64,000 bases of DNA from Eledone cirrhosa (Eukaryota). Position 1 is the stretch's first letter; every line of letters starts with the position of its first letter. The notes beneath the pieces are model-generated. The model worked only from the letters and a program-made list of their open reading frames with translations. It did not search any database and was not told the DNA's origin. Shown here piece after piece: positions 6,388-16,547 of the stretch. A program made the translations under genes and the position numbers. Location: NCBI GenBank assembly GCA_964016885.1, contig OZ024743.1, forward strand, positions 245,086,001 to 245,150,000. The letters run 5' to 3'.

Positions 6388-6616
6388 AACAGGTGTTTTT
6401 TAGCCTTCATATCATGTTCTCCTATTTTATCTGATGAAAACACAAATATTATTGCATGATGATGTTTGTTTTTGAAATGCGCATAATAAAATACATGGAA
6501 CTCCTTTAACCATCTTTTGATCTTATATTATGTATACTCCAGTCCTACAAACTGTAAAGTGCTTCTTATCCGATATCTGCATTGCTTTATTGTACTACAA
6601 TAAAACTCACCTCCTA
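6388..6616 (+). mobile_element. 3' end / pseudo-LTR of a second copy of the Penelope-like element, cut by the gap
   Basis: Highly similar to ~12974-13206 and ends at the same ...AATAAAACTCACCTCCTAC junction with (TA)n. Confidence 0.85.
6425..6491 (+). ncRNA. type I hammerhead ribozyme (Penelope pLTR)
   Basis: TTTTAT-CTGATGA-[36-nt hairpin]-GAAA-TGCGCA-TA-ATAAAA. Confidence 0.8.
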
Positions 6617-9600
6617 CATATATATATATATATATATATATATATATATATGTATATATGTATATGTATATATGTATATATATATATATGTATATATATA
6701 TATATATGTATATATGTATATATATATATGTAAATATATATATATGTATATATATATATATGTATATATGTATATATATATATATGTATATATATATATA
6801 TTATATATATATATATGTATATATGTATATATGTATATATATATATATGTATATATGTATATATATATATATGTATATATGTATATATATATATATGTAT
6901 ATATGTATATATATATCTGTATATATATATATATGTATATATGTATATATATATATGTATATATATATATGTATATATATATATATATATATATATATAT
7001 ATATATATATATATATATATATATATATTATATATATGTATATATATATATATATATATGTATATATATATATATATATATGTATATATATATATGTATA
7101 TGTATATGTATATGTATATATATATATATATATATATATATATGTATATATATATATATATGTATATATATATATATATGTATATATATATATGTATATA
7201 TATATGTATATGTATATATATATATATGTATATATATATATATATATATATGTATATGTATATATATATATATGTATATATATATGTATATGTATATGTA
7301 TATATATATATATATAGGTATATTGTATATATATATATATATATATATATATATATGTATATGTATATATATATATATATGTATATGTATATATATATAT
7401 ATATATGTATATATATATATATATATATATGTATATATGTATATATATATATATATATATGTATATGTATATATATATATATGTATATGTATATATATAT
7501 ATATATGTATATATATATATGTATATATATATATGTATATACATATATATATATATATATGTATATACATATATATATATATATATGTATATACATATAT
7601 ATATATGTATATATATATATGTATATATATATATGTATATACATATATATATATATATATGTATATACATATATATATATATATGTATATACATATATAT
7701 ATATATATATATATATATATGTATATATATATGTATATATATATATGTATATACATATATATATATATATATGTATATACATATATATATATATATATGT
7801 ATATATATATATATATAATGTATATATATATATATATATACATATACATGTATGTATATATATATATATATATATATGTATATATATATATATATATGAA
7901 TATATATATATATATATATGAATATATATATATATATATATGAATATATATATATATATATATGAATATATATATATATATATATGAATATATATATATA
8001 TATATATGAATATATACATATATATATATATGAATATATATATATATATATATATATATATATATATGTGTGTATATATATATATATATATATATATATA
8101 TATATGTGTGTATATATATATATATATATATATATATATATATATGTGTGTATATATATATATATATATATATATGTGTGTATATATATATATATATATA
8201 TATATGTATATATATATGTATATATATATATATATGTATATATATATATATATATATATATGTATATATATATATATGTATATATATATGTATATATATA
8301 TATATGTATATATATATGTATATATATATATATGTATATATATATATATATATATATACATGTATATATATATATATATACATGTATATATATATATATA
8401 TACATGTATATATATATATATATATGTATATATATATATATATATATATATGTATATATATATATATATATATATATATATATATATATATATGTATATA
8501 TATATATATATGTATATATATATATGTAAATATATATATATATATATATGTATATATATATATATATGTATATATATATATGTAAATATATATATATATA
8601 TACATGTATATATATATATATATATATATATATACATGTATATTATATATATATATATATATATATGTATATGTATATATATATATATGTATATATATAT
8701 ATATATATATATATATATGTATATGTATATATATATATATATGTATATATATATATATATATATATATATGTATATGTATATATATATATATATGTATAT
8801 ATATATATATATATATGTATATATTTATATATTTGTATATATTTATATATATGTATATATATATATATGTATATATAATGTATATATATATATATATATA
8901 TAATGTATATATATATATATATATATATATATACATATATATATATATACATATATACATATATATATATACATATACATACATATATACATAACTAACA
9001 TATATATTATACATATATACATATACATAAACATATACATACATATATACATATACATATATATATACATATACATATATATATATACATATATACATAT
9101 ATACATATATATATATATACATATATACATATATATATATATATACATATATACATTATATATATATACATATATACATTATATATATATACATATACAT
9201 ATACATATATATATATATATATATATACATATATACATATATATATATACATATATACATATATATATATACATATACATATACATATACATATATACAT
9301 ATACATATACATATATATATATACATATATATACATATATATATATATATATACATATATATATATATACATATATATATATATACATATATATATACAT
9401 ATATATATATATATATATATATACATATATATATATATACATATATACATATATATATATATATATACATATATACATATACATATATATATATATATAT
9501 ACATATATACATATATATATATATATATATACATATATACATATACATATATATATATATATATACATATATACATATATATATATATATATATATATAT

Positions 9601-10043
9601 ACATATATACATATATATATATATATATATATATACATATATACATATATATATATATATATATATATATACATATACATATATATATATATATATATAT
9701 ATACATATATACATATATATATATATATATATATATACATATATACATATATATATATATATATACATATATACATATATATATATATATATACATATAT
9801 ACATATATATATATATATATATATATACATATATATATATATATATACATATATATATACATATATACATATATATATACATATATACATATATATATAT
9901 ATATACATATATATATATACATATACATATATATATATACATATATATATATATATATATACATATATATATACATATATACATATATATATACATATAT
10001 ACATATATATATACATATATACATATATATATATATATACATA
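6617..10043. repeat. long interrupted (TA)n microsatellite
   Basis: Read directly. Mostly G-interrupted (TATG) up to ~8930, then C-interrupted (TACA). Confidence 0.95.
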
Positions 10044-10079
10044 TATAAGATCAAAAGATGGTTAAAGGAGTTCAATATA

Positions 10080-10146
10080 TTTTATTATGCGCATTTCAAA
10101 AACAAACATCATCAAACAATAATATTTGTGTTTTCATCAGATAAAA
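10080..10146 (-). ncRNA. type I hammerhead ribozyme in the inverted pLTR copy
   Basis: Reverse complement of 13014-13080. Confidence 0.8.
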
Positions 10147-10360
10147 CAGGAGAACATGATATGAAGGCTAAAAAAAAACACTTGTTGATAGTGCAGTTTT
10201 AAATCAACATATGAAAAGTGGTTTTACATTGATGTGTGATATTGGGAAAAATATTTTATTTAGAGAGGGGGGGGAGAGAAAAGGATGAAAAGGGAAGGAG
10301 ATGAGAGGGAGAGATGGGTGATAGAGAGAAAGAGATAGTTTTTATAACAGAGAGGAGATA

Positions 10361-11756
10361 TATTGGTATCTTCATTTTGAACTCTTTGAGTCGGAAAATT
10401 CCTCAACTTCGCGGTGGAATTTATCGTGACGATGGACTCTTTACTATCCTAAATTGCAATATAGTTAAACTTAATATTATTAAGAACAATATACGTAATC
10501 TCTTTAACCAACATAACCTAAAAATTGAATTTGATAATAGTACCAAACTAGCTAATTTCTTGGATGTATCTCTTAACCTTGACACTGGCCTATATTACCC
10601 TTACCATAAAAACAATGAGAATCTTAATTATGTTAACTTTAAATCTAACCATCCTACCAATATCAAGAATGCTATAGTTAATAATATTGGAAATAGAATA
10701 TCTAACATATCTTCTAATAAAAACATCTTTGATGCTAACGCCAATTACTATAATAACGCACTTTCTAAAGCCGGCTATCCAGATAAAATCAAATATAATA
10801 AAGAAACAAATTCTAGGAAAACTTACAGTAGAATAATTAATCATGACCATTCCAATAATTTTAATAAAAGACCTAGATACAAAAACATAATCTGGTATAA
10901 TGCTCCTTTCTCCATCTCTATTAATAACAATATTCCTAAATTATTTTTTAGTGCCTTAAATAAATGCTTCCTCCCTCACATATCTATAGTAAAATATTTA
11001 ACAAACACACCATCAAATTTTCGTATTCTACATCCTCCAATATTTCCAACATCATTTCTAAACACAACAACAAAATATTAAATACTAAATCTCTTCCTTC
11101 CAATATTGAATCTCATAATAACAATAATAGTACTCCTGACGTCATTGTAAACCCTAGGCTAACTTCTGTAAACCCAAATGCAACGTCAAACACAACTTCG
11201 CTAAATGTTCATAATCCAACTCTAAATCAAGAAACTATTATTCCTATTATTCCTATCGCAAACAACTTCTCCAATCCAATTCCTTCTATAGATAACACTA
11301 GATCACTCATTAATAATCTCTCTAATTGCAACTGCCGCATTAAAAATAAATGTCCTCTCAACAACCACTGCCTCGATAAAAACTTAATTTATGAATGTAA
11401 AATTATAACTAGCACCAATTCCTTCACCTATTTTGGCTCCACTTCCACCTCTTTTAAAGCTCGTCTCTATAATCATCATTCATCTTTCAAATACAAACTT
11501 AAAAGAACTAACACTGCTCTCTCAGAACTCATATGGTCCTTAAAAGACAAAAAACATTAAATATAACATCTTTTGGAAAAAGATTTCTTCTGCATCCTCG
11601 TACTTGAACAGTTCTCTATCTAAAATCTGTAATCTCTGCCTAAATGAAAAATTTACCATTATCTCTAACCTAGAATCCATAATAAATAGACGCTCGGATT
11701 TGTTTTCCATCTGCCTGCATAAATTCCATAGAACTTTTCACAAAGTATACAGTTAA
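10361..11756 (+). pseudogene. Penelope-like reverse transcriptase (C-terminal part) plus GIY-YIG endonuclease, with two frameshifts
   Basis: Motifs GIYRDDG, NFLDVSLNL, SNHP and IIWYNAPFS; linker CNCRIKNKCPLNNHC; LIYEC...TYFGST..SFKARLYNHH; after the second shift, FWKK...KICNLCLNEK...NRRSDLFSICLH. The shifts are at ~10972 (C run) and ~11550 (A run). The CxCx5C linker plus C-terminal CxxC resembles the Hydra PLE group, from memory. Confidence 0.9.
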
Positions 11757-15687: not shown

Positions 15688-15725
15688 AGCACTGGATATG
15701 TATATATATATATAGCACTGGATAT

Positions 15726-15768
15726 GTAGTCCTGATGATTTCTAACAAGAATGAAACGCGTAGATTAC
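15726..15768 (+). ncRNA. type I hammerhead ribozyme, unit 1
   Basis: GTAGTC-CTGATGA-T-TTCT-AACA-AGAA-T-GAAA-CGCG-TA-GATTAC. GUA triplet, with predicted cleavage after 15762. Confidence 0.85.
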
Positions 15769-16036
15769 TTCCCTTGCTTTTATCGAGAATCTAATTGTAA
15801 TACGTGACGTATTCTATTCTATAGCGATTAGGTCTTCAAAATGTTTATTATAAACATACAGAATATTTTCGAATATTCTATGTCTATAATTCACATATAT
15901 ATCGCTATTTCAGAGCATTTATTCCAATTTCTAATTTCTGCCGGACCGGCAACCGCTCTTTCAAACCAGTTCCTGTACACAGCTAAGTATTCTATAAGTC
16001 TCTAGCTGTGTCATTCTCGATAAAAGCACTGGATAT

Positions 16037-16079
16037 GTAGTCCTGATGATTTCTAACAAGAATGAAACGCGTAGATTAC
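16037..16079 (+). ncRNA. type I hammerhead ribozyme, unit 2
   Basis: Identical core. Helix I is extended by a perfect 16-bp pairing of 16013-16028 with 16086-16101. Confidence 0.88.
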
Positions 16080-16345
16080 TTCCCTTGCTTTTATCGAGAA
16101 TCTAATTGTAATACGTGACGTATTCTATTCTATAGCGATTAGGTCTTCAAAATGTTTATTATAAACATACAGAATATTTTCGAATATTCTATGTCTATAT
16201 TCACATATATATCGCTATTTCAGAGCATTTATTCCAATTTCTAATTTCTGCCGGACCGCAACCGCTCTTTCAAACCAGTTCCTGTACACAGCTAAGTATT
16301 CTATAAGTCTCTAGCTGTGTCATTCTCGATAAAAGCACTGGATAT

Positions 16346-16388
16346 GTAGTCCTGATGATTTCTAACAAGAATGAAACGCGTAGATTAC
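16346..16388 (+). ncRNA. type I hammerhead ribozyme, unit 3
   Basis: Identical core and the same extended helix I. Confidence 0.88.
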
Positions 16389-16547
16389 TTCCCTTGCTTT
16401 TATCGAGAATCTAATTGTAATACGTGACGTATTCTATTCTATAGCGATTAGGTCTTCAAAATGTTTATTATAAACATACAGAATATTTTCGAATATTCTA
16501 TGTCTATATTCACATATATATCGCTATTTCAGAGCATTTATTCCAAT

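Follow-up and report, generated by a model that had tools for sequence, protein, structure and literature searches.

Inverted, tailed insertions of a young hammerhead retrozyme in Eledone cirrhosa and their likely origin through a Penelope-like element protein

Four insertions in one TA-rich tract

The 64,000-nt stretch of the Eledone cirrhosa genome analysed here (the window; assembly GCA_964016885.1, contig OZ024743.1, positions 245,086,001 to 245,150,000) holds copies of a Penelope-like element (PLE) and a non-coding tandem array of hammerhead ribozyme units. Four insertions, A to D, lie within or at the edge of a TA-rich microsatellite tract (6618-21513). An earlier note on this DNA had placed the PLE and the array in (TA)n and had proposed them to be a helper and its parasite, the 310-nt unit being mobilised in trans by a TA-targeting PLE reverse transcriptase (RT) with a GIY-YIG domain. 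The common setting proved right, as both occupy the same tract.

Insertion A (6389-6620, plus strand) represents another copy of the Hydra-clade PLE by its 3' end, which is 96.4% identical to 12985-13209. It has a hammerhead core at 6431-6485, and its 5' side is cut off by an assembly gap. Insertion B (10044-13209) begins with a short inverted arm on the minus strand (10044-10364), which lacks the tail of about 90 nt and has its own hammerhead core (10086-10140, minus strand). This stretch of 321 nt at the start of B is 98.8% identical to 12798-13116 in reverse complement, the antisense copy of the PLE 3' region that had been noticed before. On the plus strand follows a 5'-truncated remnant of the RT/GIY-YIG open reading frame (ORF; 10362-11753; tblastn 86-94%). 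It corresponds to residues 336-798 in a relative whose 798-aa frame is intact, and it is frameshifted near 10940-10976 and 11544-11551. The match to the GIY-YIG domain in B is weak (E 0.016) and under the cut-off. The 3' untranslated region and pseudo-long terminal repeat (pLTR) occupy 11754-13209 (plus strand), include a hammerhead at 13020-13074, and finish at the long end, 13209, after which TA begins. The PLE tail (13117-13209, plus strand), about 90 nt long, is found in the long arm only and opens with an ACTC...GAGT hairpin.

Insertions C and D are made of the hammerhead repeat. Insertion D (15714-16547, plus strand) is a single-armed array of 2.7 units of 309-311 nt, with hammerheads at 15732-15762, 16043-16073 and 16352-16382, and is preceded by a duplicated 16-mer (15688-15703). 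The last 35 nt (16513-16547, plus strand) form its tail, counted from the commonest short-end join to the long end. Insertion C (14624-14844) is a mini-insertion of the same repeat. Its inverted long arm on the minus strand (14624-14749) folds directly back into a short forward arm on the plus strand (14746-14844), with a 4-nt overlap and a palindromic junction, and the forward arm ends in TA. The sequence starting at 14627 had been taken for an antisense copy belonging to the array. The match is indeed exact, 14627-14749 being the reverse complement of 16422-16544 (100% over 123 nt), but it is part of a separate and complete two-armed insertion, with about 845 nt of TA between it and D.

The PLE and the array both have type I hammerheads with a palindromic helix III, TGCGCA in the three PLE cores and CGCG in the three array cores. 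These palindromes had been read as a specific link between the two elements. This reading is lost, as type I hammerheads of metazoans generally have the trait (PMC4209133). Between array unit and PLE there is no significant similarity (best E 0.35 with the window copy and 1.2 with a full-length copy), in agreement with the earlier impression by eye.

The retrozyme family and its insertions

The hammerhead repeat of 310 nt belongs to the non-LTR retrozymes (LTR, long terminal repeat) and is very young. The tandem unit has 34% GC, array D contains no non-repeat ORF of at least 100 aa, and a type I hammerhead core is present in all three units of the window. Rfam gave no hammerhead match at the gathering score, nor among the 150 of 249 E-value matches listed. 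The circular monomer has a predicted fold of -67.8 kcal/mol (z -4.4; none of 60 shuffles as good), and the hammerheads are predicted to self-cleave and yield circular RNA; a look-up listed no RNA run with the array. The copies are dispersed, have no LTR, primer binding site or polypurine tract, and their arms join TA directly. Metazoan non-LTR retrozymes are likewise non-coding, low in GC and built of tandem repeats, each about 300 nt long and bearing a single type I hammerhead, and two axolotl families share a one-pair helix III, a palindromic tetraloop and U-U at the base of helix II with the array (PMC7229834). Circular RNA was shown for those retrozymes, whereas the array is known from its sequence and predicted folds; the accessible text of that study describes no inverted arms, tail or microsatellite target.

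A census by exact sequence patterns found 4,578 hammerhead 33-mers and 1,436 long ends of the array in the genome, and none with backwards controls; three of the first 100 long ends were internal variants. Divergence within loci is 0.08% (152 of 186,923 bases, 59 loci). For the analysis below, 88 insertions were taken: those at 87 of the first 88 long-end places (contig C1, within its first 172 Mb), those at loci that the hammerhead pattern had picked out, and both copies in the window.

The insertions have a strikingly uniform architecture. Among the 84 that could be resolved, 78 consist of a long and a short arm joined 5' to 5', six are single-armed, and none combines two long arms; the other four insertions run into gaps or region ends, and a 79th two-armed copy lies on contig C8. 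One arm ends at unit position 313 and the other near 278-287. Nearly all long ends (85/86) and short ends (60/61) run into TA, and the sole non-TA site has a 13-nt target-site duplication. Of 61 short ends, 35 join directly behind unit position 278, which gives a 35-nt tail, or a tail down to 26 nt if TA microhomology is allowed. The array therefore has an inverted, 5'-truncated copy at its 5' end and a tail of 30-40 nt at one end. Inverted copies, tails of 30-40 nt and TA targeting are traits of PLEs (PMC8557442), and the rule of one long and one short end is expected if each DNA end uses one of two RT start sites (PMC11167929).

How the two arms were made can be narrowed down further. The long arm exceeds the short arm in 31 and falls below it in 27 of 58 insertions. 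These lengths led to rejection of a fold-back origin, in which one arm would be copied from the other; both arms are longer than two units in 34 of the 58. The 5' breaks are near-random (Kolmogorov-Smirnov test against uniform, p 0.16). At the 58 junctions, arms overlap in 33, meet bluntly in four and are separated by an insert in 21. The inserts are mostly pieces of the array unit, and some are merely parsing gaps. One holds 272 nt of a LINE-type element (LINE, long interspersed nuclear element) from another contig (C25), in long-arm sense, as expected of an RT template switch, and one was copied from nearby genomic DNA. A 54-nt piece of a second Hydra-clade family, Hydra B, at the junction of locus L274 was considered as evidence for a helper and rejected; it carries private variants of a Hydra B copy about 0.8 kb away and is better explained as a local templated insert.

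Two side observations concern these junctions. They recur at unit positions 88 and 155-161 (L034, L079, L123, L278), the two strands of the stem that closes the hammerhead, so that two cDNAs can anneal via the RNA's own inverted repeat. Furthermore, at least 39 copies of a LINE-type element, 96-98% identical to the captured piece and encoding a Cys-rich finger and an RT, are clustered at 19-24 Mb of contig C25 (L283-L291).

Sequence variants give information about the template. Haplotypes are locus-specific and fixed across units (34 haplotypes in 73 array loci), and no locus-wide change affects the catalytic core of the hammerhead. The haplotypes of the two arms agree in 39 of 45 informative loci, compared with a chance of 0.11 for two random loci, and four of the six mismatches rest on one unit only. 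This indicates that the arms come from one molecule or one source locus. Ribozyme dimers that bring two unrelated RNAs, one per arm, are rejected by the same agreement. Unit-specific variants are mostly unshared between arms (63 unshared; index-matched sharing solely in L105 and L129), as would fit copying from a uniform template, for example a circle. Locus-wide changes comprise 18 A>G and 5 T>C events (minimal network, p 0.001), compared with 13 and 14 among singletons, and 16 of the 18 A>G events fall at paired positions. This bias is expected under selection for G-U pairs as well as under A-to-I editing. Cephalopods edit their RNA heavily.

Two further non-coding hammerhead families were met in the same genome. 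An older tandem group of about 320 nt (L132-L161; L034:9141-9716; 5,263 matches) has the end module and both ends of the array together with a different hammerhead, whose helix III is long and palindromic and whose core is, in many copies, U3-A8 instead of C3-G8. The third family (L034:8703-9110; L292-L321; 4,538 matches) has a unit of about 420 nt and a short tail and, like the array, AGAGY about 12 nt ahead of the long end.

Candidate helpers among Penelope-like elements

The window PLE, 5'-truncated and interrupted by two frameshifts, is by its motifs a defective member of an abundant Hydra-clade family that also has intact copies. Locus L073 contains an intact full-length unit (3,709 nt) whose 798-aa ORF has RW at residue 37, DKT at 123, CNCPVKNKC at 657, CNLC at 757 and CLH at 785. 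The family thus combines RW, DKT, the CxCx5C linker, CxxC and CxH, and GIY-YIG at the C-terminus, by which it was assigned to the Hydra clade on motif definition (PMC8557442); a hammerhead in the pLTR and (TA)n targeting are present as well. All these features are shared with the Hydra-clade PLEs of that study. Differences are the 3.7-kb unit (published ones are generally under 3 kb), RWI instead of RWK, and the tail of about 90 nt instead of 30-40 nt (PMC8557442).

The genome contains 13,207 exact 3' 22-mers of this family. At the first 30 loci, 28 ends enter TA and two run into the next tandem copy, and 16 of the 30 have, within 1.5 kb, an inverted arm that is shorter by about 90 nt. Open frames of at least 805 aa surround 25 of the best 150 RT matches. 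Identity between arms reaches 100%, and paired arms are mostly closer to each other than to the window copy. The protein has 37 homologs with 28-41% identity, only one of them named, an Argonauta protein (37%) whose label as a GATA zinc-finger protein is probably wrong. In 11 of the 30 loci, and often in both arms, the arm stops at the equivalent of window positions 12947-12950, leaving fold-backs of about 430 nt; this stop may be a transcript 5' end or mark a self-propagating mini-element. In some PLE copies elsewhere (L163, L167, L181, L182) both arms end at a CACATA motif just past the ORF stop, which we read as probable alternative internal priming without a tail.

Mobilisation of the array retrozyme by a PLE is well supported by the insertion footprint. 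The class-level part of the earlier claim, that the unit moves in trans by PLE machinery, stood up to the checks named with it, namely TA preference and inversions in array copies elsewhere. The choice of the neighbouring PLE did not. Juxtaposition in the window does not single out a helper, and the neighbour is one candidate among many. The fetched loci contain about ten other Hydra-like families (28-54% protein identity) and several Neptune-like ones that target TA, and the matches listed include dozens of kinds of two-armed, tailed elements between TA runs. Tails that could be assigned to a family measure about 77-96 nt in Hydra and 41-70 nt in Neptune-like PLEs. A Hydra family at L110, tried as a short-tail helper, was dropped because its tail is about 77 nt long and because the array ahead of one of its copies (described below) is an ordinary insertion.

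Several of the other PLEs deserve mention in their own right. The Hydra-like family at L117 is the most abundant of those counted (42,156 exact end 23-mers), and a canonical hammerhead core was not found downstream of its ORF. Neptune-like families in L192-L261 have TA ends, open frames of 844-1,096 aa at three loci and, in one family, a hammerhead-like core of the U3-A8 type. A PLE-like family (L124, L142, L262, L273, L280) has a 66-68-nt tail and a hammerhead helix II that is nearly that of the array, and the ribozyme module may therefore have been exchanged.

Among the alternatives, the one that survives best concerns the origin of the array, which could be the detached and amplified pLTR of an unseen or extinct PLE whose start sites it kept, the helper then being a relative in sequence. 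We consider this possible but rather unlikely, and it would be compatible with copying by a PLE protein. In its favour, the older 320-nt group keeps both ends and an end module about 75% identical to that of the array next to a different hammerhead, which gives the module the look of a constrained sequence. An origin of this kind has been proposed for Xenopus retrozymes, of which 24 among 57 families match annotated repeats that are almost always PLEs (bioRxiv 10.64898/2026.07.22.740005). The earlier note had itself said that its proposal would fall if the array proved to be the pLTR of another autonomous element. Yet no array insertion (0/88) continues into a PLE ORF, and neither do the older relatives (0/30 loci) or the third ribozyme family (0/30 loci), although the 88 and the 30 loci are too small a sample to exclude a rare parent PLE. 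Against 70 GIY-YIG loci, the only clear matches of the array unit are separate insertions of older relatives, and an array found ahead of one Hydra ORF is an ordinary two-armed insertion before a decayed element. The 30 loci of the third ribozyme family, whose tail is similarly short, stand for 30 of its 4,538 matches.

It is less probable still that the neighbouring Hydra family is the specific helper, which would recognise RNA structure and start at other spacings on the array RNA. The family was recently active, as its long open frames and arms of up to 100% identity suggest, and it shares TA targeting and the short inverted arm with the array. Its tail opens with ACTC...GAGT, a motif that is degenerate in the array (GCTA...GAGC) and missing from three Neptune-like tails; it was chosen after the data had been seen. 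At least eight families, among them the neighbour and Hydra B, begin their tails with this RCTC...GAGY hairpin, a point against the neighbour as the specific helper. By hand count, a neighbour end lies within 10 kb of five of 21 array ends in the first 49 Mb of contig C1, with about 0.85 expected. In 443 kb of flank around 69 array regions, however, the neighbour occurs four times against 1.95 expected (2.0-fold), which is the level of the controls Hydra B (10 against 6.2, 1.6-fold) and Neptune-like (5 against 1.96, 2.6-fold); older relatives of the array were found there three times against 0.78. In 20 further array regions, the counts were zero for the neighbour, three for Hydra B and two for Neptune-like. 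At the protein level, 3 of 89 array regions contain the neighbour family, compared with 13 for other Hydra-like and 11 for Neptune-like ORFs. Among four sequencing runs listed as containing the array, the PLE is deep in one, thin in another and nearly absent from two, a pattern given no weight because absence from a run is no proof. With tails of about 90 and 35 nt, no shared sequence, and co-location no higher than in control families, the helper and parasite pair of the earlier note is not upheld.

A hairpin similar to that of the tail follows the long end in several ORF-linked Hydra families. Having been chosen in hindsight, the motif is a lead toward a Hydra-clade helper, not a proof. A Hydra-clade family is a more likely helper than a Neptune-like one, and recognition of the array RNA by its structure is hinted at.

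Least probable is that the arrays are satellite DNA spread by recombination or repair in fragile TA tracts, or moved by LINEs: some post-insertion expansion is visible, and junction inserts came from neighbouring genomic DNA and from a LINE-type element, but DNA recombination would not predict a fixed pair of unequal ends in 78 of 84 insertions, 5' breaks that are near-random, a target-site duplication, an intact ribozyme core or a strand-biased A>G change, and twin priming by LINEs gives non-overlapping arms and no fixed tail.

Apart from the four insertions, the window contains three non-LTR RT ORFs, at 38894-39946 (plus strand, 350 aa), 44818-47298 (minus strand, 826 aa) and 50505-52145 (plus strand, 546 aa). 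Tandem arrays with a 27-nt unit (44251-44417 and 47222-48325) flank the 826-aa ORF.

Proposed mechanism and its meaning

Taken together, the array is most likely a young non-coding retrozyme that is copied into TA runs as head-to-head arms, in trans, by a candidate PLE RT/GIY-YIG protein. First, array RNA would be transcribed and cut by paired hammerheads into monomers able to circularise. A PLE protein would then nick both strands of a TA run, as suggested by the biochemistry of PAc. Reverse transcription would be primed by each DNA end at a fixed RNA site of its own, with about 35 nt between the two sites; the footprint of one long and one short end is seen directly, and the enzymology is the conjectural part. 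Both arms carry the same locus-specific haplotype, hence one molecule or source locus, and multi-unit arms may arise when a circle, or an uncut multimer, is read repeatedly. Finally, the arms stop near-randomly and are joined by microhomology or short templated inserts.

This scheme borrows from known systems. A PLE protein cuts and extends both strands, and two internal RNA start sites define the tail, a feature called unique to PLEs (PMC11167929). The PAc Poseidon system of that in vitro work thus shares two adjacent RT start sites, the cutting and extension of both strands and an AT-rich target with the scheme proposed for the array, but it is autonomous, belongs to another clade and has its binding site in the ORF, whereas the array has no ORF (PMC11167929). 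Non-autonomous Chlamys PLEs, for example MRC1, are also non-coding multicopy head-to-tail insertions; unlike the array, their 3' ends generally resemble those of autonomous partners, and most Chlamys elements are without canonical hammerheads (PMC8557442). PLEs had already been proposed as strong helper candidates for retrozymes (PMC7229834). PLE machinery is likewise held to move vertebrate retrozymes, on the basis of co-occurrence and pLTR homology; the accessible text includes no mollusc and not the words "tail" or "target site" (bioRxiv 10.64898/2026.07.22.740005). In contrast to those retrozymes, the array is homologous to none of the sampled PLEs, and its insertion footprint provides the evidence.

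A more specific version is only tentative. In it, a PLE dimer would grip one circular 310-nt RNA by its structure alone, start with both subunits at two sites 35 nt apart and roll from the two ends of a double nick in (TA)n, so that A-to-I edits of this one RNA would become fixed in all units of the two arms.

Several points weigh against copying in trans from one uniform template. Two loci, L129 and L095, have mixed haplotypes, and in L129 the haplotype changes in both arms once two units have passed, as a linear multimer would explain but a circle would not. Variants at scattered units in L111 and L037 reflect some post-insertion expansion or conversion, and shared haplotypes could come from one expressed source locus instead of one molecule. 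The sample was mostly chosen by the long end, in the first 172 Mb of one contig, so that copies with two short arms are under-seen. Among the PLE families sampled, no autonomous element has a tail of about 35 nt or the sequence of the array, and we infer the helper PLE rather than see it.

The idea that PLEs move retrozymes is published, and the insertion-level footprint evidence appears to be new. A literature search that mostly left aside subscription journals found no description of inverted, tailed, TA-targeted retrozyme insertions or of edited retrozyme templates.

The finding bears on two questions. One is which enzyme moves animal retrozymes, for which the published support consists of co-occurrence and pLTR homology. 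Here, a young family with a PLE tail and inversion in 78 of 84 insertions gives direct footprint evidence. The other is how PLEs create inverted insertions with a tail. The two exact putative start sites, at unit positions of about 278 and 313, make an in vitro test with naturally intact PLE proteins specific. If a PLE dimer does read a single circle, the arrays would be a genomic record of both inverted, tailed PLE insertion and germ-line RNA editing.

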